64,000 nt of DNA from sequence record DRR723986_1737; one strand, written 5' to 3'. The notes under the pieces are model-generated. The model was not told the DNA's origin and searched no databases. It saw only the letters and a list, made by a program, of their open reading frames with translations. Position 1 is the stretch's first letter. Each line of letters begins with the position of its first letter. A program made the position numbers and the translations under genes. Of this stretch, positions 1 to 23,550 are shown one piece after another.

Positions 1-69
1 GTCAGAGCCCTTTTATGAGGTCGGCCAAGGTTTAAAGATAATTGATCTATGGGCTCTGACCCCTTTTTT
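1..69. repeat. Inverted repeat GTCAGAGCCC (1-10) / GGGCTCTGAC (51-60) followed by CCC and a T-run; probably cut by the window edge
   Basis: Perfect 10-bp inverted repeat with a 40-nt spacer, read directly. Confidence 0.6.
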
Positions 70-74
70 ACTTC

Positions 75-146
75 TAGGCGAAAGCGGACCTTTTGGGGCT
101 GTTTCGCCCCAGGATGGCTGGATGTCCGCTTTCACCTCAAAGCGGC
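75..146. repeat. Palindromic intergenic element, copy A (TAGGCGAAAGCGGAC ... GTCCGCTTTCACCTC)
   Basis: Arms 76-89 and 124-137 are reverse complements with 1 mismatch; inner GGGGC/GCCCC hairpin. Confidence 0.8.
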
Positions 147-229
147 TGCTTATCTACAAAAGCGTCAAACGTAGCCGTAGAACTGAAACCCAGTACAATG
201 GAGTAACTCAGTAACTAAGGGTCGCGGGA

Positions 230-787
230 ATGCATGGTGATCGATCATGGGGAAAGCTGCTTCTCGAGGTTTTCTCAATTGTGCTAGGGGTTCTGCTTGC
301 TTTGGCAGTCAGCGAGTGGCAGCAAGCAAGGGAAAACGAACAGCGTGCCTCGATAGCCCTTCAGAATGTTCAGTTAGAACTTCAGGCTAACCAAGAAATA
401 CTTACCAGGATTCATGAAAATAATCGACAGACTATCGAAAAAGCCCAAAACTCAGAAGACGAAGAGAACGAGATTCTTCAGTTTATCCCAGGTGTGCAGG
501 TGCGCTCGACAGCATGGGACACCCTTCTCGCCAGTGGAATCAGCGTTCATATCAACTATGAGGTGCTGCTGGCGCTATCAGAGACCTATTCCATGCAATC
601 AATATATCGTGAGACGGGCATGAAGCTATTTGAAGCCTCAATGTCTATGGCGGCGATGGCCACTGTAGATGATAAGCAAATCGATAACGAGATCATGCAG
701 GATCAATTCATGGGTACTTTCATGATGCTCCTATCAATGGAGGAGGTGATGCTGGAGAGTTACCGGGAATCGCTGCAGCTATTCTGA
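230..787 (+). CDS. Hypothetical protein with N-terminal membrane anchor and coiled coil (DUF6090-like)
   Basis: 185 aa; LEVFSIVLGVLLALAVSEWQQARE N-terminal pattern. Confidence 0.7.
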   Translation: MHGDRSWGKLLLEVFSIVLGVLLALAVSEWQQARENEQRASIALQNVQLELQANQEILTRIHENNRQTIEKAQNSEDEENEILQFIPGVQVRSTAWDTLLASGISVHINYEVLLALSETYSMQSIYRETGMKLFEASMSMAAMATVDDKQIDNEIMQDQFMGTFMMLLSMEEVMLESYRESLQLF

Positions 788-817
788 ATTGGGCTGAAGG
801 TGAATAGCATTCACACG

Positions 818-881
818 TAGGCGGAAACGGTCATTAATTTACAGTGCGGTTCCAGGTAGGCAAGGTGCCCGTTTCTACCTC
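818..881. repeat. Palindromic intergenic element, degenerate copy B
   Basis: TAGGCGGAAACGGTCA (818-833) ... TGCCCGTTTCTACCTC (866-881); same 48-nt arm offset as copy A. Confidence 0.65.
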
Positions 882-892
882 TTTGACGTCAG

Positions 893-1399
893 TCACCTTA
901 GCCAAACTTCTTCCTCGTCTTCCAGTATGTGTGAGTTGTTTAGTCCGGCGGCTTTGGCAACCGACTGACTGGTGAAATGCTCTCGATGTATGAGCGCCCT
1001 GATATTCGTTATGTCATTTTCAAGCAGCCATGAAGTTAAAGTAACAGTGGCCTCACTTGCGTAACCCATTGCCTGCCACTCAGAACCCACCAGCCATGCT
1101 ATATCTGCCTGAGAGTTTTTTATCGTCGCTTGGACGTAGCCGATTGCTGCATTATCTTCGAGTAGAAACATTATCCATGTTAGCCAGAGTTCGTCACAAT
1201 TTACCGATCTACGTGACTCCAGTGCACTAAACCAGTGCTCGGTGTCCGCAACAGATTTTGGCGGAGTGCCTCCTGTGAAAGCATACAAACTGTAATCAGA
1301 AAGAACTGGGAACATTGCGCTTGCATGCATGCCCAGCACTGGAACAAGTCGAAGACGAGCTGACTGCAAGGATATGCTGCAATCAAGATTTGGAATCAA
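893..1399 (-). CDS. GNAT family N-acetyltransferase (RimJ/RimL-like)
   Basis: 168 aa; LQSARLRL start, IGYVQAT, WQAMGYASEA acetyl-CoA motif, SQSVAKAAGL. Confidence 0.85.
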   Translation of the reverse strand: MIPNLDCSISLQSARLRLVPVLGMHASAMFPVLSDYSLYAFTGGTPPKSVADTEHWFSALESRRSVNCDELWLTWIMFLLEDNAAIGYVQATIKNSQADIAWLVGSEWQAMGYASEATVTLTSWLLENDITNIRALIHREHFTSQSVAKAAGLNNSHILEDEEEVWLR

Positions 1400-1446
1400 A
1401 GAACACTGCCTATTTCAATCGTTACATCTTATTAGCATAGCCCCAT

Positions 1447-1476
1447 GTCAGCTTGTAGGCGATAGCAGACATGTCC
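1447..1476. repeat. Palindromic intergenic element, partial copy C (left hairpin only)
   Basis: GTCAGCTTGTAGGCGATAGCAGAC hairpin containing the TAGGCG core, then ATGTCCGC. Confidence 0.6.
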
Positions 1477-1480
1477 GCGC

Positions 1481-1969
1481 TTACCGTATAGCAATAGCCT
1501 TCGTGAATAGCCAGCCAACTGCCGCACCGACGATGATAGCGGCCCCATAGGCGAGTTGCACTGGCAAAAACACCCATACGGCATCCCAGACGATAAATAC
1601 CTCTCGGAAGACCATCACCATCCCGAAAAGCCCAAAACCATGGGCAACCAAAATTACTGTCAGTCGTGAATCCCTGTCTTTCTTACTTAACGCGCGTTTG
1701 TTCAAAGAAATTCGGGCCACGAACGCGAGGACGATGAAGGGAATAGCCCACCATACTGAAAGCGGTAAGGCAAAACCGATAAAGTACTTGATTGGCACTG
1801 TAGGAGCTGCCTGGGTCATCAAGTACGCCTTTATGGCCAAGCCAACTAACCACGGTGTAAGCATGCTGCTTATGAGTATTCCCCAGAAGACATTCTTTGT
1901 GTTCTGCTCTATCTGCTGTCTCTTGATGGACATCGTCATGGAGCAATAATCTTGAATACTGCTGACCAC
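1481..1969 (-). CDS. Hypothetical integral membrane protein (about 4 TM); start uncertain
   Basis: 162 aa ORF with four hydrophobic segments. Confidence 0.7.
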   Translation of the reverse strand: MVSSIQDYCSMTMSIKRQQIEQNTKNVFWGILISSMLTPWLVGLAIKAYLMTQAAPTVPIKYFIGFALPLSVWWAIPFIVLAFVARISLNKRALSKKDRDSRLTVILVAHGFGLFGMVMVFREVFIVWDAVWVFLPVQLAYGAAIIVGAAVGWLFTKAIAIR

Positions 1970-2010
1970 GCCATGATATGCATCAACATCATTTGTTCTA
2001 TCCGAGAATG

Positions 2011-2087
2011 GTCCGCGATTAGGCGAAAGCGGCCGATTTAGGCCCTTGAACGGGACTGGAGGCTACAGGGGCCGCTATCACCTCAAA
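2011..2087. repeat. Palindromic intergenic element, copy D
   Basis: GTCCGCGATTAGGCGAAAGCGGCC ... GGCCGCTATCACCTCAAA; near-identical to copy E. Confidence 0.85.
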
Positions 2088-2144
2088 TCTGCTGGTCCGA
2101 TAGCAAAACTTGAGCGGCCACTTTTGTCCAGAAGCCGTCTCAAA

Positions 2145-2687
2145 TCATTGCAGGGCCCAAAGAATAAGGGGGCGTACGCTACGTCGGGTGTTGGCATCGA
2201 TACGCTCATCAAATTTGTAGTCAACGCCGTTTACATTCATGTCGAGCTGCAAATAAAGGTACCAATGTTCATTGAAGGGGATGGGCTCAGAGCCGCCAGG
2301 GTCGTACTCGGGTTGGCCCTGCATCCAGAAATTGTCGTCGTAATCTGCAATCAGTTGGGTCGGCTCATCGCTGGGAAAATGGTAGCTGAACGAGCGAATC
2401 TTGATGGATTCAATGTTCGGGTTACGGCCGGCCCGTTTGCCTTTCTCCCGGACGAACACCTGAAAATATACCTGGTCCGGCGTTCGGAACCTCCGGTAAA
2501 GGAAGGGAATATGCGCCTCCTGATCGGGAAAATCTGCCGGATACGTCGAAATGTGAAGCTCGTTGCCATCGTCGACAGGCAGCGTGATGGGGCCATAATA
2601 CTGAACAGTGCTGTCCATACAGCCCTGCAGTAGCAAACCTATAAGAACGGTGCCAGCACCTTGGGCCGATACTTGATAGTGCATCAC
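2145..2687 (-). CDS. Putative lipoprotein of unknown function
   Basis: 180 aa; hydrophobic stretch ending in lipobox-like LLQGC. Confidence 0.65.
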   Translation of the reverse strand: MMHYQVSAQGAGTVLIGLLLQGCMDSTVQYYGPITLPVDDGNELHISTYPADFPDQEAHIPFLYRRFRTPDQVYFQVFVREKGKRAGRNPNIESIKIRSFSYHFPSDEPTQLIADYDDNFWMQGQPEYDPGGSEPIPFNEHWYLYLQLDMNVNGVDYKFDERIDANTRRSVRPLILWALQ

Positions 2688-2770
2688 ATACTTCCGCTTA
2701 ACGTCTTGTGTGAATCAATGGGGGGGCAATTGGTCTCGGCAGCGGACACTTGGGCAAGCTTAGACCAGAT

Positions 2771-2845
2771 GCCGCTTATAGGCGAAAACGACCGATTTAG
2801 GCCCTTGAACGGGCCTGGAGGCTGCAGGGGTCCGCTATCACCTCA
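2771..2845. repeat. Palindromic intergenic element, copy E
   Basis: 2779-2845 matches 2020-2085 with 4 substitutions and 1 indel. Confidence 0.85.
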
Positions 2846-2982
2846 TTGCTGAAGATAACTCGCTTGGGCACTATTCTGGTTCCTTGTCCAACAAGCTATC
2901 GACGGCGCTGTTGAACGATGAGGCGTAGTAGGCGGCCATCGTTTCAGTCCATGTCGGGTAGAGCACTAGACCTGCTTATCGA

Positions 2983-3765
2983 TTATCCGTAATAGGAAAC
3001 GACCGGCGAGTGGACCGCCAGGCCGCCTTCAGCCTGGATTGTCTGTCCCGTGATGTAGCCGGCTGCATCTGAGGACAGAAAGGCTACCAGTTCCGCAATA
3101 TCCTCTGGTTTCCCCAGTCTTGGTGTGAGTGTCTCGGCCTTGTAGCCCTTCATCACCGGCGCAGGTATCAGTGCTTCCGAGGCCGGGGTGACAATCAGTC
3201 CTGGTGCGATCGCGTTGCAGCGGATACCCCGGCCCGAGTACTGGGTTGCGACGTAGCGGGTCAGTGTCATCACGCCTGACTTGGCGACACCGTAGGCCGT
3301 GTTGCTCATGTCGCCCAGCACAGCGCCCATGGAAGCCGTGTTAACGATGGATCCGCCCCCGCTGTCGAGCATTAGTGGTATGCCGAACTTGCAGCCCATG
3401 GCCACACTCTTGAGACAAATCCTGAAGGTGTCATCCCAGGTGTCCAGATCGAGATTGACGATATCCAGGTCGGTCGTCACGTCAGTTGCGCCTACATTGT
3501 TGTGGAGGATGTGCAGGCCACCGAAGGTTTCACGGGTGAATTCGACGACTTCTCGTACGGAGCGCTCTTGCGTGGCATCGAGGAATATCGATACCGCTTG
3601 GCCACCACTGGCGCTGATTTCCTGGGCCACATCCCGGGCACCTTTTTCGTTGAAATCCGCCACGACAACACGCGCGCCCTCCCTGGCCAGCGTCTTCGCC
3701 GTGGCAAGGCCGATCCCGGAGGCAGCCCCGGTAACGATAGCGACTTTCCCATCCAGAGATTTCAT
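2983..3765 (-). CDS. Classical SDR family oxidoreductase
   Basis: TGAASGIG, NNVG, S...YGVAK catalytic motif, PG. Confidence 0.95.
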   Translation of the reverse strand: MKSLDGKVAIVTGAASGIGLATAKTLAREGARVVVADFNEKGARDVAQEISASGGQAVSIFLDATQERSVREVVEFTRETFGGLHILHNNVGATDVTTDLDIVNLDLDTWDDTFRICLKSVAMGCKFGIPLMLDSGGGSIVNTASMGAVLGDMSNTAYGVAKSGVMTLTRYVATQYSGRGIRCNAIAPGLIVTPASEALIPAPVMKGYKAETLTPRLGKPEDIAELVAFLSSDAAGYITGQTIQAEGGLAVHSPVVSYYG

Positions 3766-3834
3766 GGCTCTGCACTCCTGTTTTCGGTGTTTTGCTCGTC
3801 AGGCCCACTATACACCCAGGCCAATTGCGGGAAG

Positions 3835-4608
3835 CTACTGACCCAGCGACCGAAGATCCTCTACCAGGCCGTGGATAACTTCCTGCTTTGCGCTAAGCAG
3901 ATATATAGAGACAGAGTCTCGGGCGATGCTTTGTTGTAGATAGGTCGCCATCCTGGGGTGGGCAACAATGCGTGCCAGGACCTGTTCAGCTTCGTCTTCC
4001 TCGATGCCCAGGTCACAGTCGCTCCTCAACTGTTCCATAAAGCTTCCGCCAGGTGGCATGTAAATACACTCGGCCCGGATCTTGTCCTGCAGCGTGATCG
4101 GCATCACGCCGCGTAATTCCATGCGATAGCGTTTCACCTCGTTGAATACGCTGTTCATTTCCTGTCCGTAGTAGGCCGAGAGCCTTGAGGTTATTTCGGG
4201 GCCACCCAGTCGTTCTACCAGCCCGTTACTCAATAGTGCGTCATATGCGCCACGTAGCGATGTGGCTGGAAGGACGTTGGATGCCTGATACAGTGCGACG
4301 ATAGTTTCCTTGGCATTGCTCTCCTTTTGCGGATTGTCGCTCCAGGCCGACAGCCCCGCCAGCGCATAGCTCCGCACCTGCTCGTAGTAAGCTATATGCG
4401 CTTTGCCTTTGTCCCATTCTATGCTGAGATCGGTAATTAACTGCTCACGATATTCGTCAGCCCGCTGTTGATCGAGACGCCCCTCGTTCCAGCGATCAAG
4501 CTGAAAACCCGCAAAAACACCGACGACGAGAAGCACAAGCTCCACAGCGGCAGTGAACCAGTCATAGTCGCGGAACGATCGCGTAAGGCGAGCGAGAATC
4601 AAGGGCAA
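3835..4608 (-). CDS. Hypothetical membrane-anchored protein (DUF6090-like, same type as 230..787)
   Basis: 257 aa; ELVLLVVGVFAGFQLDRWNE N-terminal pattern; TTG start. Confidence 0.7.
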   Translation of the reverse strand: MPLILARLTRSFRDYDWFTAAVELVLLVVGVFAGFQLDRWNEGRLDQQRADEYREQLITDLSIEWDKGKAHIAYYEQVRSYALAGLSAWSDNPQKESNAKETIVALYQASNVLPATSLRGAYDALLSNGLVERLGGPEITSRLSAYYGQEMNSVFNEVKRYRMELRGVMPITLQDKIRAECIYMPPGGSFMEQLRSDCDLGIEEDEAEQVLARIVAHPRMATYLQQSIARDSVSIYLLSAKQEVIHGLVEDLRSLGQ

Positions 4609-5017
4609 TACCTGTAATCAATCAGTAGGCGCAGGCTGTAGTGTAGCTCAGTTCTCAGATGATTTCGGACTGCTTTGGCCTGTGCTGCGAGGGTGGAAAC
4701 AGGCGGGGCTGGGCCACGCTTAGCCGCGCGCGTCAGAACTGAATCCGTAAGGTCCTGGATGGGGATTCTCTCCAGGATTCCTCGTCAACAAAAAAACCTG
4801 GCCACCTGTTGTTGGTCACTACGGGGGGCATTGATTGATGGGCGTTAGCAGCTTGCAATGCTATGCCTCGTGCCCCCAAATATTCTAAGCAGTCGACTTC
4901 TTATTGTTATTAGAGCTAACGCGCGGCCGTCAGTGGGGTAGCGGTAATCTACACTTTGTACTCCGGGTTTGACCCTGCGGTGACAGGGGCAACCCAAGGG
5001 CTAAAGAGGATAAGGGT

Positions 5018-6082
5018 ATGACGGAACAGACAATGGATATGCAGAAATTCGAGGCGTTGCAAGGAAAGGTCATGGGTGACGTGGGCGGAGCTATGGGCCT
5101 GCTGATGGCCTACATCGGTGACCAGGCCGGCGTTTACCGTGCCCTGGAGGAGGCTGGCAGTTGCAGTGATGACGAATTGGCGAGCCTTACCGGGCTCAAC
5201 CAACGCTATCTGCGTGAGTGGCTGTCGGCCAATGCTGCCTTTGGCTATGTTGATTACGATAGCGAGCGGGACAGTTTCTCGCTCAATCCCGAACAGGCGG
5301 CGCTCTTTGCTCATGAGGGTGACCCCACCTGTATGCAGGGTTTCTTCCAGGCTGTGGTTTCGCAGTATACGACGCATGAGACGGCCGTCGATGTGTTCAA
5401 GACTGGTCGTGGCCGACCCTGGGGCGAGCATCATCAGTGCTGCTTCTGTGGCACCGATCGCTTCTTCCGTCCCGGCTACGCGATGAATCTGGTCAGTAAC
5501 TGGATACCGGCTCTGGATGGCATGGAGGAAAAACTACGCGCGGGCGCCAAGGTGGCAGACGTCGGTTGTGGTCTCGGGTCCTCGACTTTGTTGATGGCCG
5601 AGTCGTATCCGAATTCGATTATTCATGGCTACGATTTCCATCCGCCCTCTATCGATGAGGCGCTTCACAAGGCGGCGGCGGCCGGTCTTGGCAATGTGGA
5701 TTTTCAGGTGTCGACTGCCAAGACCTTTCCCGGGCAGGGTTATGACCTGGTCTGCATCTTTGATGCCTTGCACGATATGGGCGATCCGGTGGGTGCTGCG
5801 CGGCATATCCGCGAATCACTCAAGCCGGGCGGCATCTTCATGCTGGTGGAACCCATGGCGGGTGACAGCCTGGGCGATAACCTTAACCTGCTCTCTGGTA
5901 TCTTCTACGGTTTCTCGACGACGGTTTGTGTGCCCACTTCAAAATCCCAAGAAGTGGGGCTTGGTCTCGGCGCGCAGGCGGGTGAACGACGCCTGACCGA
6001 GGTGCTGACCGATGCAGGATTTACTCATGTGCGCCGGGCCACGGAAACGCCTACCAATCTCGTGCTTGAGGCGGTAGCCTGA
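5018..6082 (+). CDS. Class I SAM-dependent methyltransferase with N-terminal winged helix (Rv2258c-like)
   Basis: RYLREWL wHTH segment, VADVGCGLG motif I, FDALHDMGDP; GAGG RBS. Confidence 0.9.
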   Translation: MTEQTMDMQKFEALQGKVMGDVGGAMGLLMAYIGDQAGVYRALEEAGSCSDDELASLTGLNQRYLREWLSANAAFGYVDYDSERDSFSLNPEQAALFAHEGDPTCMQGFFQAVVSQYTTHETAVDVFKTGRGRPWGEHHQCCFCGTDRFFRPGYAMNLVSNWIPALDGMEEKLRAGAKVADVGCGLGSSTLLMAESYPNSIIHGYDFHPPSIDEALHKAAAAGLGNVDFQVSTAKTFPGQGYDLVCIFDALHDMGDPVGAARHIRESLKPGGIFMLVEPMAGDSLGDNLNLLSGIFYGFSTTVCVPTSKSQEVGLGLGAQAGERRLTEVLTDAGFTHVRRATETPTNLVLEAVA

Positions 6083-6116
6083 GGTCCCAAATGTCTACTC
6101 AGGGAGTTGTTCCGGC

Positions 6117-7292
6117 ATGGCAGAGGGCTTGTTTGACGAATTGCTGGTGCTCGACTGCGCCAGTTTCATAGCGGGGCCAGCGGCCGCCACCATGCTTGCC
6201 GATATGGGCGCTCGGGTCATCAAGGTCGAGCCGCCTGCCGGCGACGGTTATCGGCAACTGCTGCGCCTGCCTGGGCTACCCCAGTCCGACACCAACTACC
6301 CCTGGCGCCATACCAACCGGAGTAAGGAGGGTCTGGCGCTGGATCTCAAGGATCCCGGTCAGCGCGAGGTGCTGGAGGCGCTGATCCGCAAGGCGGATGT
6401 GTTTATCACTAACTACCCCCTGGGCGTGCGGGATAGCCTTGGCTTGACCTTTGATGAGGTTCAGCGCATCAACCCACGGATCATTTACGCTTCATTCACG
6501 CCCTACGGTGAAGCGGGGCCGGAAGCGGCGAGCACCGGCTACGACGCCACGGCCTGGTGGGCGCGCTCCGGGCTGATGGACGCGGTGCGCGCCTCGGGTG
6601 AGACGCCGCCAGCCATCTCCATGCCGGGCATGGGGGACTATATGTCCGCCTGCAGCCTGTATGGTGCGATTGTCACCGGGCTCTACCGGCGGGAGAAAAC
6701 CGGGCAGGGCGGTCGGGTGGGAAGTTCCCTGATGGCGAACGGCCTGTGGTCCAACGCGGTGTGCATACAGGCTGCGCTGGATGGCGCTGATACCAGCAAG
6801 CGGCTCGATCGCGACAAGTTGAGCGCATTTTCCCAGGTGTATCGCTGTGCCGATGATCGCTGGTTCCTGCTGACCGTACTGCCGCAGGTCCAGGACAGAA
6901 TCTGGCCACTGCTTGCCCGCTGCGTAGGGCATTCCGAATGGCTGGATGATGAGCGCTTCGCCTCGATGGAATCGCGGCGCAGGCACAACCAGGAATTGAT
7001 TCGCTTGCTCGAGGAAGCGTTTGCCACGCAGCCCTGGGCGCACTGGCAAGCCGAGATGGAGTCGCTGCACATCACCGCCGGGCGAATTGCCCGCCACGCG
7101 GACCATGGGGAGGATGAGCAGGCGATCGCCAATGGCATGCTGGTCCCCTTCGAGGACGACCCTGGCACCAAAACCATCGACAGCCCGTTTTACATCGATG
7201 GTGTCGCCAAACGCGCACCCCGGCAGGCCCCGGAGGTGGGCCAGCATAATGCCGAGATTCTTGCCGAGCTTGGTATTCGGTTGCCAGGCTGA
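6117..7292 (+). CDS. Family III CoA-transferase (CaiB/BaiF)
   Basis: IAGPAAATMLADMGARVIKVEPP.GD, NRSK..LALDLK, GYD motif. Confidence 0.95.
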   Translation: MAEGLFDELLVLDCASFIAGPAAATMLADMGARVIKVEPPAGDGYRQLLRLPGLPQSDTNYPWRHTNRSKEGLALDLKDPGQREVLEALIRKADVFITNYPLGVRDSLGLTFDEVQRINPRIIYASFTPYGEAGPEAASTGYDATAWWARSGLMDAVRASGETPPAISMPGMGDYMSACSLYGAIVTGLYRREKTGQGGRVGSSLMANGLWSNAVCIQAALDGADTSKRLDRDKLSAFSQVYRCADDRWFLLTVLPQVQDRIWPLLARCVGHSEWLDDERFASMESRRRHNQELIRLLEEAFATQPWAHWQAEMESLHITAGRIARHADHGEDEQAIANGMLVPFEDDPGTKTIDSPFYIDGVAKRAPRQAPEVGQHNAEILAELGIRLPG

Positions 7293-7311
7293 GTGGCCAT
7301 AGCCAGCGGCT

Positions 7312-8382
7312 CTAAGGCTGGCAGGGCCTTATCGCAGCGCCGTTGGAATCGAAAATAATCAGGTGATGCAGGTCGAAGCTCACCGGCATCTGTGCGCCGG
7401 GCTCGAACAGCACGTGGCTTTCCGTGGTGCAGGGAACGTGCTGCCCGTCGGGCAACACCAGGTCGTAGAGAAAGTGTGCCCCGCGAAATGAGCGGCCGGC
7501 AATAGTGAGACGGCTGCTGCTGTTCGGGTCGTACTGCACATCATCCGGCCGCACCAGCATATGGAGTTTCCCGGCGCCTGCGGCGCGGGCAAGTTCTGGC
7601 GGCAGTGCGCCGAAGCCGTTGTTCAGTTGCCCCGCCTGGTCGGCCTCCACTTCGATCACGGTGCCGCGACCGATAAAACCTGCGGCGAACAGGTTGGCAG
7701 GTTGATGGTAAAGATCGTAGGCCGTGTCGGTTTGCACCACCCGGCCCTGGTTGAGCAGCGTCACCTGGTCGGCGATGGCAAAGGCCTCGTGCTGGTCGTG
7801 AGTAACCATGATGGCGGTCATGTTCTTTGTTCGTAGCAGCTCGCGCACTTCCAGTGCCAGTTGTTCACGCAGCTCTGTGTCGAGACTGGAGAAGGGTTCG
7901 TCCAGGAGCAGGATATCGGGATCCGGCGCCAGTGCGCGTGCCAACGCGACCCGCTGCTGCTGGCCACCGGACAGCTCGTGTGGCATGGCCTCAGACCAGG
8001 GTTCGAGTCCGGTCAGCTGCAGCATTTCGTCAACCTTCCGCTGACGTTCCGGCGCGGCCAGCGCCTTGAGCCCAAAGCCGATATTGCGGCGCACGTTCAG
8101 GTGCGGGAACAGGGCAAAATCCTGGAATACCATGCCGATACGCCGCTGCTCCGGTGCCACCCGAGTCCCAACCTTGCTCAGTTCCCGGTCCCCGAGGGTA
8201 ATGGTTCCGCCAGCCAGCGGTTCAAAGCCCGCAATTGCCCGCAGCAGGCTGGTCTTGCCGCAGCCGGATGGGCCCAGCAGGCAGGCGATAGCGCCGTCGG
8301 CTACGGTCAGGGAGGCGTCGCGGACGGCGACGATCTCTCCGTAGCTGACGCTGACTGAGGCAAGTGCCAGGGGTTTACCCAC
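7312..8382 (-). CDS. fbpC: Fe3+ ABC transporter ATP-binding protein
   Basis: GPSGCGKT, LSGGQQQR, LLLDEP; GTG start at 8382 after AGGAGG. Confidence 0.9.
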   Translation of the reverse strand: MGKPLALASVSVSYGEIVAVRDASLTVADGAIACLLGPSGCGKTSLLRAIAGFEPLAGGTITLGDRELSKVGTRVAPEQRRIGMVFQDFALFPHLNVRRNIGFGLKALAAPERQRKVDEMLQLTGLEPWSEAMPHELSGGQQQRVALARALAPDPDILLLDEPFSSLDTELREQLALEVRELLRTKNMTAIMVTHDQHEAFAIADQVTLLNQGRVVQTDTAYDLYHQPANLFAAGFIGRGTVIEVEADQAGQLNNGFGALPPELARAAGAGKLHMLVRPDDVQYDPNSSSRLTIAGRSFRGAHFLYDLVLPDGQHVPCTTESHVLFEPGAQMPVSFDLHHLIIFDSNGAAIRPCQP

Positions 8383-10030
8383 GTGCGTCCTCCTGAGCGG
8401 TGATGCCGCGGAACAGCAGTAAGACGGGTAGCAAACCGATGAGCACAATCGCCAGCGCCGGCGTGGCCGCATCCGCGAGGCGTTCATCGGAGGCCAGCTC
8501 ATAGGTGCGCACTGCCAGGGTGTTGAAATTGAATGGGCGCAGGATCAGGGTGGTGGGCAATTCCTTGAGCACGTCCACAAACACCAGCAGCAGGGCACCG
8601 AGCAGGCTGGCGCGCAGGATCGGCAAGTGAACCCGGCGCAACAGGCCAGTGGGTGATTCGCCCAGGGCACGCCCGGACTCGTCCAGGCTGGGCTTGATCC
8701 GCGCGAGCCCGGACTCCACGGTTTGCAGGGAGACAGAGAGAAAGCGCACCACGTAGGCGAATACCAGGGCCACGAGCGTGCCGCTGAGAATCAGTCCCGT
8801 GGAAACCCCGAGCCAGTCCCGAGCCAGGGTATCGATCCGGTTGTCCAGCCAGGCAAAGGGAATGAGTACGCCAACGGCGATTACGGTGCCGGGGATCGCG
8901 TAACCCATGGCTGCGATGCGGCTTGCGGTGATTTCCGTCGCCCCCGGTGACAGGCGCTTGCCATAGCCCAGTAACAGCGCCACCAGCAGGCAGCAGCCGG
9001 CGCTACCGGCGGCCAGCAGGAAGCTGTTCCAGACCAGCTGGGCAAACTGCGCGTTAAGATTCGTTTGCCAGTGAGCGCCTGCCCATAGTGCCAGCTGGCA
9101 AGCCGGGATGAGAAAGCCCAACAGCACGATAACGACGGCGAACCCGGTAGCTGCCGGGCCACTCCAGCCGCTCAGCGCAAGACGTGTAGGCTGGCGCGCG
9201 GCCGTGCCATGGTGATACCGCAGCCGTGCGCGGGATACCCGCTCCAGGGCGAACAGGGTAAACACGAAGATCAGCAGCAGAGCCGCCAGCTGGGCCGCGG
9301 TGGTAAGTTCGCCCAGGCCGTACCAGGTCCGGAAAATACCGGTGGTAAACACACTCACGCCGAAATAGGCCACGGTGCCGTAGTCCGCCAGGGTTTCCAT
9401 CAGGGCCAGGCTGACGCCAGCGGCGATCGCCGGGCGCGCGAGTGGCAGACCAAGTTCGAACAGTGCCTGTCGCGGGTTTCGGCCGAGGCTGCGGCTGGCT
9501 TCGAGCAGGGCTGTGGACTGTTGCGCGAAGGCAACCCGGGCCAGCAGGTAAACGTAGGGATACAGGACCAGGGAGAGCATGACGATCGCGCCGCCGAGCG
9601 AGCGTATTTGCGGAAAGTAGTAATCACCGTAAGCCCAGCCGAAGGTCTCACGCAGCGCCTGCTGGACCGGCCCGCTGAAATCCAGCAGGCCGGCATAGGT
9701 GTAGGCGATGATATAGGCCGGCATTGCCATCGGCAGCAGCAGGGCGGCGCTGAGCAGGCGGCGGCCGGGGAAATCGCACATCGCCGTCAGCCAGGCAGTG
9801 CTCACACCCAGCAGGAAGGTGCCCAGTCCGACGCCGAGCATGAGCCCGAGCGAGTTGAGCACATAGTCTGACAACACGGTGTCGGCCAGGTGGCGCCAGG
9901 CCGGTGAAAAGGGCTGGGTAAGACTGGATACGATTACCAGCAGGGGCAGCGATAGCAGCAGGGCCACGCTCACCAGCGCGGCGCGCCAGCGGCGATTGAC
10001 CCCGGTGGCGACCGGGAGCGACCAGGTCAC
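8375..10030 (-). CDS. fbpB: Fe3+ ABC transporter permease
   Basis: 551 aa, two permease repeats with EAA-type loops, METLADYG and DVLKELP motifs. Confidence 0.92.
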   Translation of the reverse strand: MTWSLPVATGVNRRWRAALVSVALLLSLPLLVIVSSLTQPFSPAWRHLADTVLSDYVLNSLGLMLGVGLGTFLLGVSTAWLTAMCDFPGRRLLSAALLLPMAMPAYIIAYTYAGLLDFSGPVQQALRETFGWAYGDYYFPQIRSLGGAIVMLSLVLYPYVYLLARVAFAQQSTALLEASRSLGRNPRQALFELGLPLARPAIAAGVSLALMETLADYGTVAYFGVSVFTTGIFRTWYGLGELTTAAQLAALLLIFVFTLFALERVSRARLRYHHGTAARQPTRLALSGWSGPAATGFAVVIVLLGFLIPACQLALWAGAHWQTNLNAQFAQLVWNSFLLAAGSAGCCLLVALLLGYGKRLSPGATEITASRIAAMGYAIPGTVIAVGVLIPFAWLDNRIDTLARDWLGVSTGLILSGTLVALVFAYVVRFLSVSLQTVESGLARIKPSLDESGRALGESPTGLLRRVHLPILRASLLGALLLVFVDVLKELPTTLILRPFNFNTLAVRTYELASDERLADAATPALAIVLIGLLPVLLLFRGITAQEDARG

Positions 10031-10038
10031 GGCTCCGC

Positions 10039-11070
10039 TCAGCGCCAGCTAGCCCGGTCCATGGCCATCACTGCGGCCGCATTGAGGCGTCCAAGTTCCG
10101 CTACTGGCACCTCGTCCGCCTTGAAGCTGCCCCAGGATGCCAGCAGCGCACTGGGTGGAATGTCAGCACGCACCGGGTATTCGTTATTGGTTTCTGCATA
10201 CCATTGCTGGCTCTCGTCCCGGGTGAGGAATTCGATGAGCTGCAGTGCAGCCTCCGGGTTCTTCGCAGCGGCGGTAACGCCGGCGCCGGACACATTGATG
10301 TGGGTGCCGCGCCCATCCTGGTCTGGCCAGAAAATAGCCACCTTGGCGGCTGCCGCCTGCTGTTCAGCGATTCCCGAGGTGATCATGCCGCCCAGGTAAT
10401 AGCTATTGACCACCGCGATATCGCACTGGCCGGCTGCCACAGCGGCAATCTGGTCGCGATCACCACCTTGTGGCGGGCGGGCGAAATTCGCCACAAAGCC
10501 CTTCAGCCACGCCTCGGTGTGCTCCTGCCCGCGGGTGGCGAGCATGCCGGCAACCAGGGACTGGTTGTAGATATTGTCCGAGGAGCGAATGCAAATACGG
10601 CCACGCCATTGTGGCTCGGCAAGCGCGTCGTAGCTGCTGAGCTCATCGGCGGTGACCCGGTCCCGTGCGAAGACAATGGCTCGAGCGCGAACGCTGAGAC
10701 CGTACCAATAACCCTCGGCGCTGCGCAGGTGTGCGGGGATTGCCGCGGCCAGGCCCGGGGAGGGCATGGCCCGCAGTACGCCGGCTTCCTGCGCGCGATA
10801 GAGGCGGCCGACATCGGTGCTGATGAGCAGGTCCGCGGGCGAATTCCGGCCCTCGTTCTGGAGGCGGGTCAGCAGGGCGTCGCCGGAGCCGGTCACCAGG
10901 TTAACAGTGATGCCCGTCTGCTCGGTGAACCGGTCCAGTAAGGGCTTGATCAGGGCTTCCTGGCGGGCGGAATAGACATTCACCTCGCCTGCGGACCAGC
11001 CGCTGGGGACAAAACACAGGGCGCACAGGGCCAGCAGCGTGCTGGGCAGGCGGGGGAGGATGCGGATCAT
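10039..11070 (-). CDS. fbpA: Fe3+ ABC transporter substrate-binding protein (FutA/FbpA)
   Basis: Signal peptide, VNVYSAR, iron-binding NSYY tyrosines, NNEYP. Confidence 0.92.
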   Translation of the reverse strand: MIRILPRLPSTLLALCALCFVPSGWSAGEVNVYSARQEALIKPLLDRFTEQTGITVNLVTGSGDALLTRLQNEGRNSPADLLISTDVGRLYRAQEAGVLRAMPSPGLAAAIPAHLRSAEGYWYGLSVRARAIVFARDRVTADELSSYDALAEPQWRGRICIRSSDNIYNQSLVAGMLATRGQEHTEAWLKGFVANFARPPQGGDRDQIAAVAAGQCDIAVVNSYYLGGMITSGIAEQQAAAAKVAIFWPDQDGRGTHINVSGAGVTAAAKNPEAALQLIEFLTRDESQQWYAETNNEYPVRADIPPSALLASWGSFKADEVPVAELGRLNAAAVMAMDRASWR

Positions 11071-11094
11071 TAGGTGGCTACCGGGTCAGGTTAT

Positions 11095-11120
11095 TGAGAA
11101 CGCTAATTATTCTCATTTAG
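11095..11120 (-). promoter_or_regulatory. Probable Fur box upstream of the Fe3+ ABC operon
   Basis: Minus strand CTAAATGAGAATAATTAGC (11120-11102) matches 13/19 of GATAATGATAATCATTATC; TGAGAA/TTCTCA inverted repeat. Confidence 0.8.
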
Positions 11121-11254
11121 CCACATGAAAGCAAGCCACAGGCCCTGCGATTAGACCCAGCTGGCCCTGCGGCGGTTGGTCAGCAATTTGTTAATGCTGA
11201 ATCAGGGTTAGAATGCGCAGTTTAACAGACAGTTAGCCTGAGCGAGGTAGCCAG

Positions 11255-12046
11255 ATGAAGGGAAACCACAGCCGAACCGGCCTGCGTGCCGCGTCCCCGT
11301 GCAGGGCGGTAGGACGACGCTCTTCATCCCTGCTGCGCTGGTGTCTCCTGTGGTCCTTTAGTGCCTTCCTGGCGGGCTGCGGCGACGATCCAATCATTAC
11401 CGCCTCTGAGTGCGATCACGGCCTGACAGCGGAGGAGGCGACAAATGGTTGGCGTGTGCTGTTTGACGGCAGCAGCCTTGCACAGTGGCGCAGCTACGGC
11501 GAACAGACGGTCGATGATGGCTGGGTGATTGAGAATGGCTGCCTCGCCCGGGTCGGCTGGGCTGGCGACCTTATCACCCGCGAACAGTATGGTGACTTCG
11601 AGCTCAAGCTGGACTGGCGCATTTCCGATTCTGGTAATAGCGGCATCTTCATTCGCGGCGACGAGTCGGGCAGGTCGCTGCCCCAGACGGCGCTGGAGAT
11701 GCAGGTGCTGGACAATCACGGGCACTGGGACGGAGACGACCCGACTCATCGCGCCGGTGCATATTACGACATGATCGCCCCGGGACATGACACCAGCCGT
11801 CCGCCGGGCACCTGGAACGCGGTGCATATCATCGCCCGAGGTCCCCATGTGGAGTTCTGGCTGAACGGGCAACAAACGGCCAGTTTCGAGCAGGGCAGCG
11901 ACGCGTGGCGCGAACTGTATGCGCAGAGCAAATTCGCCGATCGCCCTGCGTACGGCTCACTGCTGCGCGGTCATATCGGCTTGCAGGATCACTGGGACAA
12001 GGTGTGGTACCGGAACATCCGGGTACTGCCGCTGGACGCTGAGTGA
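11255..12046 (+). CDS. DUF1080 (3-keto-disaccharide hydrolase-like) lipoprotein
   Basis: LAGC lipobox; GW..LFDG, YGDFEL, NSGIF, EMQVLD, GHIGLQDH, YRNIRV. Confidence 0.9.
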   Translation: MKGNHSRTGLRAASPCRAVGRRSSSLLRWCLLWSFSAFLAGCGDDPIITASECDHGLTAEEATNGWRVLFDGSSLAQWRSYGEQTVDDGWVIENGCLARVGWAGDLITREQYGDFELKLDWRISDSGNSGIFIRGDESGRSLPQTALEMQVLDNHGHWDGDDPTHRAGAYYDMIAPGHDTSRPPGTWNAVHIIARGPHVEFWLNGQQTASFEQGSDAWRELYAQSKFADRPAYGSLLRGHIGLQDHWDKVWYRNIRVLPLDAE

Positions 12047-21810: not shown

Positions 21811-23550
21811 ATGAGCAGGACGTTCGATCGCGCGACAATCCAGCGGTCGCTGAAGAGCTCCCTGCTCTGGGTCGGCCTGTTCAGCCTGTTTATCAACCTG
21901 CTGATGTTGGTCCCTGCATTCTATATGCTGCAGGTTTACGACCGGGTGATCACCAGCGGCAGCACGTCGACGCTTGTCATGCTCAGTCTGATCCTGGTGC
22001 TGTTGTTGACCACCCTGGGCGCGCTCGAGTGGGTCCGCTCCCAGATCCTGGTGCGCCTGGGCACCCGGGTCGAGGTTATGCTCGACGAGCGCCTGTTCGA
22101 TATTTCCCACCGTCAGGCCCTGTACAGCGGCGGTGCCAATGCCGGTGGCAGCTTGCTCAACGATTTGTCCGGGCTCAGGCGCTTTCTTTCCGGTCACGCC
22201 CTGTTCGCATTATTCGATGCGCCCTGGCTGCCGGTTTACTTGCTCGTCATGTATCTGTTCCATCCGCTGTTCGGCCTGGTTGGCCTGGTCACCGCCGGCG
22301 TCTTGCTGGCGTTGGCCTGGTTTAACGAGCGGATCACGGGGGCAGCGACCGCTGAGTCAGTTACCGCCTCGCGGGGTGCGGCTGATTTTGTTTCCCGCAA
22401 CCTGCGTAATGCCGAAGCCATCGAAGCCATGGGTATGCTCGGCAATATCCGTGAGCGCTGGCTGGGTCACCAGGCCACTGCGCTGGCGGCGCACAGTCGT
22501 GCCAGCCGCCGCGGTGGTGCCGTGTCCGCTTTCTCCCGCGTGTTTCGCCTCACTGTGCAGTCCCTGGTACTGGGCCTCGGTGCCTGGCTGGTTATTGGTC
22601 AGCAGATTACGCCGGGGCTGATGATCGCCGGTTCTATCCTGTTGGGTCGCGCGCTGGCGCCGGTGGATATGCTGATCGGCAGTTGGCGCCAGTTTGTCCA
22701 GGCGCGGGAGGACTACGGTCGTCTCAAGACCATGCTGGACAAGGTCCCGGCCGACAGGGAAAGAATGCCGCTGCCAGCGCCTGGCGGGGCACTTTCCCTG
22801 GAACACCTGACGGTGGCACCGCCCGGCAGCCGAACGCCGGTGCTGCGTGACGTGAGCCTGGCGATTGCCCCGGGGGAGCTGGTCGGCGTTATCGGCGCCA
22901 ATTCCTCGGGCAAGACCACCCTGGCGCGGGCAGTGCTGGGAATCTGGCCGCCACTAGCCGGCAGTGTCCGCCTGGACGGGGCCAAGCTGAGCGATTGGGA
23001 TAGAGAGGCGCTGGGGCCGCACGTGGGCTATATGCCACAGGATATCGAGCTGTTCGATGGCACAGTGGCGGAGAATATCGCCCGTTTTGGCGTGGTAGGC
23101 CCGGAGGCGGTTGTATTGGCGGCAAGGCTTGCGGGGGTGCACGATATGATTCTGCGCCTGCCGGCTGGCTACGATACATCGGTGGGGCCGGGTGGTTCCG
23201 TGATGTCTGCGGGACAGCGTCAGCGTATTGCCCTGGCCAGGGCCTTCTATGGTTCGCCAAGCCTCGTCGTGCTGGACGAGCCCAATTCAAATCTCGATGA
23301 CTCCGGCGAAGCGGCCCTGCTGGCAGGTCTGCGGGAGCTCAGGCAGTTGGGCACCACGGTGCTGGTTATCTCCCATCGCAACACGATTCTCGCCGTGGTG
23401 GATAAGCTGATCCTCCTGCACCAGGGCGCCCTCGTGGAGGCCGGTCCCAAGGAAGCGGTGCTGAAGACCTTGAACAAGAAGATTGCCTCGATGCAGGCCC
23501 ACCGCGCGCGCAGCCAGGTGGCCGGCTCTGGAGAGTCAGGCGATGACTGA
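21811..23550 (+). CDS. prtD: Type I secretion ABC transporter (PrtD/AprD/RsaD family)
   Basis: YMLQVYDRV, FDAPW, GRALAP, GYMPQDIELFDGT, Walker A GANSSGKT, LDEPNSNLD. Confidence 0.93.
   Translation: MSRTFDRATIQRSLKSSLLWVGLFSLFINLLMLVPAFYMLQVYDRVITSGSTSTLVMLSLILVLLLTTLGALEWVRSQILVRLGTRVEVMLDERLFDISHRQALYSGGANAGGSLLNDLSGLRRFLSGHALFALFDAPWLPVYLLVMYLFHPLFGLVGLVTAGVLLALAWFNERITGAATAESVTASRGAADFVSRNLRNAEAIEAMGMLGNIRERWLGHQATALAAHSRASRRGGAVSAFSRVFRLTVQSLVLGLGAWLVIGQQITPGLMIAGSILLGRALAPVDMLIGSWRQFVQAREDYGRLKTMLDKVPADRERMPLPAPGGALSLEHLTVAPPGSRTPVLRDVSLAIAPGELVGVIGANSSGKTTLARAVLGIWPPLAGSVRLDGAKLSDWDREALGPHVGYMPQDIELFDGTVAENIARFGVVGPEAVVLAARLAGVHDMILRLPAGYDTSVGPGGSVMSAGQRQRIALARAFYGSPSLVVLDEPNSNLDDSGEAALLAGLRELRQLGTTVLVISHRNTILAVVDKLILLHQGALVEAGPKEAVLKTLNKKIASMQAHRARSQVAGSGESGDD

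Follow-up and report, generated by a model that had tools for sequence, protein, structure and literature searches.

How several small, unrelated genes come to be separated by copies of one short palindrome is the question raised by the left end of a 64,000-nucleotide stretch of marine bacterial DNA from sequence record DRR723986_1737 (the whole of which we call the window). A preliminary description, made from the sequence alone, had proposed that this end of the window carries a cassette-like array, bounded by the recombination or insertion sites of a gene-capture system. We show here that single-gene units are bounded by a hairpin element that is lineage-specific and constrained in length, and that these units are exchanged one at a time. 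It seems to us about evenly balanced whether, beyond this, the start of the window lies within an array of gene cassettes belonging to an integron-like, non-integron system, in which the element is the recombination site of a site-specific recombinase acting in trans.

That the palindrome is a real element is borne out by its statistics. In a pattern search of the 64 kb allowing up to three mismatches, its left arm TAGGCGAAAGCGGAC is found on the plus strand at positions 75, 818, 1456, 2020 and 2779, and the complement of this arm at 124-138 and 2830-2844. The sole further match, with three mismatches, lies at 22524-22538, just before a tRNA-Asn called by ARAGORN at 22557-22652 (an odd call of 96 nt, with the anticodon ATT at position 38). 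This makes eight matches where 2.19 ± 1.42 are expected, a number attained by none of 100 shuffled sequences. A covariance model (R1), built from 139 element copies out of other genomes, resolves the array into four strong same-strand copies of 62-66 nt (E between 6e-19 and 2e-8) and one loop-less remnant, together spanning 75-2844. Copy 1 (75-139, core TAGGCG...CACCTC; R1 match 60-153, 65.1 bits, E 6e-19) is the best preserved. Copy 2 (818-881; R1 match 803-896, 32.3 bits, E 2e-8) is diverged, and has AAACGG/CCGTTT instead of AAGCGG/CCGCTT on both arms, which we read as a compensatory change. Copy 3 (1456-1485; R1 match 1441-1502, 8.9 bits, E 0.59) is the remnant, with two mismatches to the left arm, which is joined directly to the right arm; comparable loop-less forms occur in other arrays. 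Copy 4 occupies 2020-2084 (2009-2095 with its outer arms; R1 match 2005-2099, 58.4 bits), and copy 5, at 2779-2844 (R1 match 2764-2859, 49.0 bits, E 9e-14), is the last recognisable copy of the array. All five lie on the plus strand, and in four of them the right arm is found 38-40 nt past the left arm. The outer flanks repeat the arm sequence, and each arm is in itself a small 7-10-7 palindrome, as expected from the hairpins first ascribed to single arms. An nhmmer search of the whole window found no additional copy beyond 75-2844, and R1 gave nothing besides the listed copies at E < 0.2 on the plus strand of 1-12000; the element is indeed confined to this part of the window. When folded as single-stranded DNA (ssDNA), copy 1 has z-scores of -3.6 (plus strand) and -4.2 (minus strand) and copy 4 of -1.4 and -2.2, both better than shuffles. 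The four cassettes were also correctly described as AT-rich, with a GC content of 0.467-0.522 that gives way, along a gradient, to 0.56 at 2845-4700, 0.60 at 4701-7300 and 0.616 at 7301-64000. With a pool mean of 0.49, a cargo GC of 0.47-0.52 in a host of 0.62 is consistent with the cassettes having been acquired from a shared pool.

The alignment of 139 copies defines the anatomy of the element, whose consensus reads ATGTCCGCTAT-TAGGCG-AAAGCGGAC-(~31 nt)-GTCCGCT(T/A)T-CACCTC-AAAGCGGaCAT. Weaker outer copies of the arms flank the core, and each half reads as an 11-6-11 site. Conservation exceeds 90% from exactly the T of TAGGCG to exactly the final C of CACCTC, with a sharp step at the edges of the hexamers: on the left, T rises from 56% in column 15 to 96% in column 16, and on the right, 98% C in column 84 is followed by 78% A in column 85. 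The core measures 62-65 nt in 206 of 223 copies, and the element ~87 nt with its outer arms. In the folded form TAGGCG stands opposite CACCTC with two fixed mismatches, T.C and C.A, each present in 134 of 139 copies, and the two arms correspond column by column (i + j = 100), free of indels and bulges in all 139. Pairing holds in 86% of cells for the inner arms and in 62% for the outer ones. The stem runs on into the variable ~31-nt loop, where its sequence differs between loop families (pair 34-66 is AU in 50 copies and UA in 25), and the small apical stem within the loop varies on both sides. Cells in which both sides have changed number 124, against 102 ± 8.5 in shuffles, and 3 of 500 shuffles reach 124. 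Hairpins within single arms, formed by an arm and its outer copy, show no covariation, the observed values being attained by 252 and 370 of 500 shuffles. Left of TAGGCG, a leader of ~26 nt, AAGAATAGACCGATGTCCGCTAT, is conserved in all arrays (e.g. L002:4240-4266). Simple scans supported neither a role of this leader as a sigma-70 promoter nor one of the hairpin as an intrinsic terminator: promoter-like sites (4 against 9.1 expected) and terminator-like sites (2 against 6.2 expected) were not in excess, and a second scan gave a similar result. Loop-less elements and 'solo' half-elements are common. We attribute both forms to deletion between internal direct repeats, since there is a resemblance of the outer-left to the inner-right arm and of the inner-left to the outer-right. 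An Rfam search of the element returned a chance snoRNA match only.

Outside the window, the exact two-arm pattern occurs in 84 stretches of contigs from a set with one genome per species. Nearly all belong to Halieaceae (two metagenome-assembled genomes, or MAGs, are labelled otherwise), with carriers in the genera Halioglobus, Haliea, Parahaliea, Seongchinamella and Sediminihaliea. Metagenomes yielded a further 75 stretches, all short, of which one (L144) holds a recombinase, and a search of viral contigs, plasmids and phages gave no match. Arrays are few per genome, with the element on one strand, a spacing of 0.5-2.5 kb and one element per gene gap. In whole-genome scans with R1, 150 of ~900 first-look candidates were scored per genome, and the place counts are accordingly lower bounds: at least 24 distinct places in genome G001 (16 at 1.090-1.106 Mb on the minus strand, 4 at 0.898-0.902 Mb on the plus strand), at least 32 in G002, in eight clusters, and at least 16 in G005, in five clusters. 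The even scatter among core genes that would mark an ordinary repetitive extragenic palindromic (REP) sequence is thus not seen; copies sit in a few clustered same-strand arrays. In 79 single-gene-sized units the gene lies opposite the element strand in 64 and on the same strand in 7, the remaining 8 being undecided (7 with a low-coverage open reading frame (ORF), 1 without an ORF). From TAGGCG to the start codon the distance is 50-68 nt (interquartile range), and from CACCTC to the stop codon it is a median of 21 nt. The arrays L042 and L027, from two Halioglobus genomes, follow directly after the tRNA-Sec and DUF427 genes of a selA-selB locus, and tRNA-His/Pro and tRNA-Met are found near the ends of further arrays. 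A dif-type site at G001:C3:867101-867128 is 31 kb and 0.22 Mb away from the two main arrays of G001, and one at G005:C12:320361-320388 is 0.13-0.25 Mb away from arrays of G005 (L117, L118); the arrays may be situated in the terminus region. Two small membrane-protein families, neither of them in Pfam, recur as cassettes across arrays (L002, L006, L014, L016, L018 and others). The first starts MNWDAxGAxxE...QIRQN (39 members, 12 genomes) and the second ends ...FMWSVRHPK (42 members, 11 genomes), so that the cargo, described as unrelated, is so within the window but includes recurrent families from array to array. We found no published description of such arrays in the literature searched on Halieaceae integrons and cassettes and on non-canonical cassette arrays.

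Comparison between genomes shows that the units bounded by this element are the units that move. Among 16 inter-genome pairs of cassettes (80-98% identical), 15 lack homology outside the two bounding elements, over 1.3 kb in each direction. At the locus that G001 and G002 share (selA-selB-tRNA-Sec-DUF427, then the array, then cupin-SDR-AraC, where SDR is a short-chain dehydrogenase), the flanks are 91-92% identical and the array genes differ. One cassette is common to both genomes, and G001 has an extra unit of 940 nt beside it, both ends of which fall inside AGGCGAAA of two elements, at their TAGGCG sites. The corresponding G002 element is chimeric: it matches one G001 element in its left flank and first base and the next one in its loop, right arm and right flank, which places the crossover within AGGCGAAA. 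Elsewhere, the same left cassette is joined via ...ATGTCCGCT(A/T)TCACCTC to different right cassettes in two genomes, and alternative contigs of one MAG share identical sequence that starts precisely at the T of TAGGCG, or stops precisely at the last C of CACCTC, with differing sequence outside. Halieaceae cassettes are therefore shown to behave as single exchangeable units, in which homology stops in or at the two hexamer sites. The prediction of a cassette-like array is upheld by these data, as gene content between elements is not invariant but differs among relatives, and its break points are at the element.

A mechanism that would account for these observations can be outlined. If the element is a recombination site, one of its strands may fold so that TAGGCG faces CACCTC, with the two fixed mismatches lying between two paired boxes; this topology would be that of a folded attC, with its R box, unpaired spacer and L box. 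A site-specific recombinase supplied in trans would then cut at the base of the conserved stem, leading to the excision and insertion of gene-plus-element units. We advance more tentatively, as a proposal that may well not hold, that Halieaceae possess in this way a second gene-capture system with no dependence on IntI. Its site would be a 65-nt twin-hexamer hairpin that, size aside, fails every attC criterion and is abundant only where IntI is undetected (in six genomes, which are not independent lineages), with several arrays per chromosome, and it would be driven by an unrecognised class of recombinase or by a repurposed housekeeping enzyme.

Several observations weigh against a dedicated recombinase acting on the folded element. 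Homologous recombination or slippage between arms of 15-17 nt would leave identical scars, and because all break points fall inside sequence that is conserved among all copies, these data do not separate a dedicated enzyme from such general processes. No recombinase is linked to the arrays: IntI occurs in none of 145 element-bearing loci, and a P4-like integrase only at L028 and L144. In G001, XerC and XerD are accompanied only by two island integrases, and serine, Y1, TnpB and IS110 enzymes were not found; most carriers are MAGs, and absence of an enzyme is thus not proven. The action on folded ssDNA first suggested is plausible, but covariation is weak, with 77.1% of cells paired against 76.5% in shuffles (10 of 500) and a covariation score attained by 64 of 500 shuffles; counts of G.T and A.C (321 against 261) single out no folding strand, and copies 2, 3 and 5 of the window fold no better than shuffles as ssDNA. 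The 'solo' half-elements are explained by deletion between the element's own direct repeats. Finally, neither an excised circle nor a joint at an element was seen among the metagenome contigs, which are short and of which none bridges a gap.

Apart from XerC and XerD, no recombinase family among those searched is shared by the carrier genomes. The window encodes no recombinase in its 64 kb, as had been anticipated in placing the enzyme outside it. The enzyme is not detected as an IntI, Y1/RAYT, TnpB, IS110 or serine enzyme in all carriers, and it is not encoded beside the arrays. The HUH or REP-associated tyrosine transposase (RAYT) type of nuclease considered in the preliminary description finds no support, as the Y1/RAYT family PF01797 occurs in only two of five element-rich genomes, where both genes are bracketed by a different inverted repeat, with no R1 match at E < 0.5. 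This repeat, which contains GGGGACAG and surrounds the Y1 transposase genes at L187:5183-5985 and L188:4738-5574, probably forms a separate REP/RAYT-type pair with them. Serine recombinases exceed the cut-off in two of the five genomes (in neither G001 nor G003), TnpB (PF07282) in none and IS110-type enzymes (PF01548) in one. A dedicated tyrosine recombinase, the other candidate originally named, fares no better: tblastn with IntI was negative at all 145 loci, and the extra tyrosine recombinases of the five genomes, considered as one array enzyme family, were rejected because they are only 24-29% identical to one another. Clustering of all ORFs of at least 100 aa within 10 kb of elements returned recurrent cassette proteins and ordinary flank genes, and no recombinase.

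General recombination or slippage, with no dedicated enzyme, is a serious rival to a trans-acting recombinase. In its full form, which we consider unlikely, the element would be a REP-like structural or regulatory repeat of accessory islands (e.g. a stabiliser of mRNA 3' ends, a boundary element or a palindrome bound by protein), swapped by homologous recombination or slippage, for example after DNA uptake from relatives. The failure to find a dedicated recombinase, the confinement of all break points to conserved sequence and the origin of half-elements by deletion between direct repeats all speak for it; furthermore, the ~26-nt leader and the constant 50-68 nt to the start codon hint at a role related to expression, and the GAGGTG arm on the gene-sense strand resembles, on inspection, a ribosome-binding core. 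Against this, copies are present only in a few arrays (in at least 24, 32 and 16 places per genome) that do not follow core genes, their orientation tracks the array and not the gene in seven inverted cases that include window gene 1, promoter-like and terminator-like sites are not enriched, arms of 15-17 nt are short for RecA-dependent exchange, and single cassettes of up to 98% identity are found in unrelated contexts. Among site-specific recombinases, only the host's own XerC and XerD were found in each of the five genomes tested, and each 11-6-11 half might be a double-stranded target for them, or the whole a folded XerCD site of the CTX-phage type, with cassettes behaving like Acinetobacter dif modules. 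The opposite hexamer polarities do alternate along the array in a pdif-like manner, and the design of the CTX attP(+) is that of two inverted sites which, on pairing, give a single site mismatched at its centre. We nonetheless hold this explanation to be quite improbable: the dif sites on the chromosomes of G001 and G005 belong to the canonical gamma-proteobacterial type, with arms that by eye are unlike ATGTCCGCTAT and AAAGCGGACAT and have ~3 of 11 positions per arm in common with the element, and the outer arms that a double-stranded site would need are kept only to ~60-78%. Least probable of all, in our view, is that the elements serve as attachment targets for P4-like integrase islands, whose accumulated integrations make up the arrays. 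Such islands may integrate at or beside these arrays, since a full 393-aa integrase with an arm-binding domain lies next to a Prim-Pol/PriCT-2 primase (L028:4919-8259) and abuts an array, a full-length P4-like integrase (L144:286-1443) that is 45% identical to another island integrase abuts elements, and truncated P4-like integrase fragments lie at three array edges in G002 (L025:8398-8631, G002:C146:147255-147659 and G002:C146:814801-814974). Full integrases are nevertheless found at only 2 of 145 loci, their position relative to the element strand is inconsistent, no half-site was found directly beside the integrase genes, and one-gene units of 0.5-1 kb are not islands.

The remaining rival holds that the elements are highly diverged attC sites, and the arrays attC-site clusters without integron integrases (CALINs) that derive from lost integrons and are, or once were, mobilised in trans by canonical IntI. 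An attC is an imperfect palindrome of 57-141 nt, and the strand that is recombined bears extrahelical bases that make its arms unequal. The element, with its core of 62-65 nt (206 of 223 copies) and variable loop of ~31 nt, agrees with attC in size, the variable terminal structure of attC being given as 20-100 nt in the sections on attC of Cury et al. (2016, PMC4889954). The same sections place an R'' box RYYYAAC at the 5' end and an R' box GTTRRRY at the 3' end, with a conserved AAC/GTT triplet (Cury et al. 2016, PMC4889954). Both boxes were sought within the outer 32 nt on either strand and were found together in none of the 139 copies; the triplet is absent, and the GTT that precedes AGGC in 8 of 139 copies stands at the 5' end, the wrong end for attC. 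Extrahelical bases of the attC type are likewise missing from the 139 copies, in which the arms are symmetric and two fixed mismatches take the place of bulges, and the conserved parts are the inner box and the hexamers with a loose outer box, the reverse of attC. IntI was scored with TIGR02249 above 265 bits, and by this cut-off it is present in 29 of 81 sampled Halieaceae genomes and in none of the six element-rich ones (G001-G005 and G012), which are mostly MAGs, so that its absence from them is unproven. Two genomes with a single pattern match each (G016 and G039) do have IntI, on other contigs. Beside ten intI genes, where canonical attC sites (ACATAAC...GCGTTAGGC) are visible, R1 had no match in 200 kb and nhmmer found no convincing element, with one weak match of 19 bits. 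In favour of diverged attC sites, the arrangement of a gene with a downstream hairpin, the cassette sizes and the compactness of the arrays are integron-like, and gene starts of the MNWDA type recur in a canonical integron array (L095, repeat family D2) as well as in element arrays. In the element-rich genome G003, a short open frame at L083 (G003:C12:1209080-1209214) resembles the C-terminal end of IntI, scoring 74 bits across 45 residues; it is a remnant of a lost integron, and the 1.5 kb around it hold no element. Additionally, in the parts of the survey concerned with CALINs, half of these are reported from genomes without IntI, and IntI is described as tolerant of divergent attC sites (Cury et al. 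2016, PMC4889954). Taking both sides together we find this derivation improbable and conclude, as the preliminary description did, that the element is not attC.

The genes of the window array itself bear out part of what was first said of its cargo. Cassette gene 1 (230-787, plus strand) is the only one on the element strand; it is an ORF of 185 aa with an N-terminal hydrophobic helix and a sub-threshold Pfam match only (DUF6090, E 0.008), and its protein found no relative among metagenome contigs. Cassette gene 2 (893-1399, minus strand, 168 aa) encodes a Gcn5-related N-acetyltransferase (GNAT), the one assignment that Pfam confirms (PF13302, E 5.7e-14). Cassette genes 3 (1481-1969, minus strand, 162 aa, hydrophobic) and 4 (2145-2687, minus strand, 180 aa, with an N-terminus resembling a signal peptide with lipobox) are ORFs with no significant Pfam family, and the labels 'membrane-anchored', 'four-transmembrane' and 'lipoprotein' given to genes 1, 3 and 4 are suggestions from reading their sequences. 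To the right of copy 5, a short-chain dehydrogenase gene of intermediate GC (2983-3765, minus strand; PF13561, E 3e-62) either belongs to the flank of the array or represents an old cassette with a decayed element. A 257-aa protein encoded beyond it (3835-4608, minus strand) clusters with L042:12940-13686, L008:419-1141, L017:18738-19460 and L024:14676-15485, homologues that are cassettes inside the arrays of other genomes and include the extra G001 cassette. As this protein is homologous to cassette proteins elsewhere, it suggests that the window array formerly extended to ~4.7 kb.

At its left end, the array adjoins a separate palindrome at 1-60, with a 10-bp stem GTCAGAGCCC...GGGCTCTGAC, a 40-nt loop and then CCCC-TTTTTT. 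It takes the place of the usual outer-left arm of copy 1, which is unpaired in the R1 alignment, and the segment 1-74 could represent a junction with a non-element partner site. Contigs of one metagenome run match the window as far as position 69 and continue with unlike sequence, and another metagenome contig matches 1617-2032, followed by 146 further letters with no alignment to the window. Among these contigs, all of them short, X3 covers 1-800 and 2938-7500 and not 802-2937, while X1 and X2 cover only 1617-2635. The highest share of words from 1-3000 in any sequencing run was 0.18, and there was no RNA run among the listed holders. The closest flank relative among 201 Halieaceae genomes has 71% identity and covers only 7350-10900 of the window. 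The window array is an instance in a more GC-rich host of a different lineage, at most 71% identical to the sampled Halieaceae.

Integrons serve as the textbook example of how folded single-stranded sites capture genes, and to our knowledge every cassette array described so far depends on attC and IntI. If a trans-acting recombinase does act on the element described here, common marine Gammaproteobacteria would possess a parallel gene-capture system with a different site and no IntI, and cassette-based genome plasticity would have arisen more than once. Part of the environmental cassette pool would then escape surveys that rely on models of attC and IntI, and a new recombination site and, once found, its enzyme would become available for study and possibly for genome engineering. 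Cultured carriers exist, as there are isolate records among the element loci, and the question is therefore directly testable.

Set beside known systems, the element shares with REP sequences and bacterial interspersed mosaic elements (BIMEs), and their RAYTs, a short, conserved and lineage-specific intergenic palindrome preceded by a TAG-containing head. Since its copies (at least 16-32 per genome, in few same-strand arrays) are clustered and not scattered by the hundred in both orientations, and RAYT-type genes are missing from three of five carriers and flanked by other repeats in the two that have them, it is not an ordinary REP. In Acinetobacter, pdif modules are shuffled between replicons, and they too are gene modules bounded by 11-6-11-type sites of alternating polarity with no dedicated recombinase nearby. 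The Halieaceae arrays differ in being chromosomal, in that each pair of sites encloses a fixed, structured 31-nt loop, and in that only the 11-6-11 geometry, not the sequence, is in common with dif. The attP of CTX-type phages and of integrative mobile elements exploiting Xer (IMEX) consists of two inverted sites a short distance apart, which pair in ssDNA into one site with a mismatched centre. The element likewise pairs two inverted sites around a mismatched central region, but its arms are unlike the dif sites of its carriers, it occurs in dozens of copies in chromosomal arrays in place of a single site in a phage genome, and no copy was found in the phages or plasmids searched. From integrons and CALINs it is set apart by lacking the AAC/GTT triplet, the R-box consensus and the extrahelical bases, by conserving its inner box and hexamers and not its outer box, by break points at both hexamers, by carriers in which IntI is not detected and arrays in which no attI or cassette promoter (Pc) end was identified, and by the presence of several arrays per genome, some adjoining tRNA genes. 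The likeness to integrons is nonetheless extensive. Both form same-strand arrays in which every compact single-gene unit is followed by one imperfect palindrome, constant in size, and in both a mismatched centre lies between the two paired boxes of the folded site, cassettes are shared singly between genomes, content varies at a fixed chromosomal locus, and the cargo is richer in AT than its host and mostly of unknown function.

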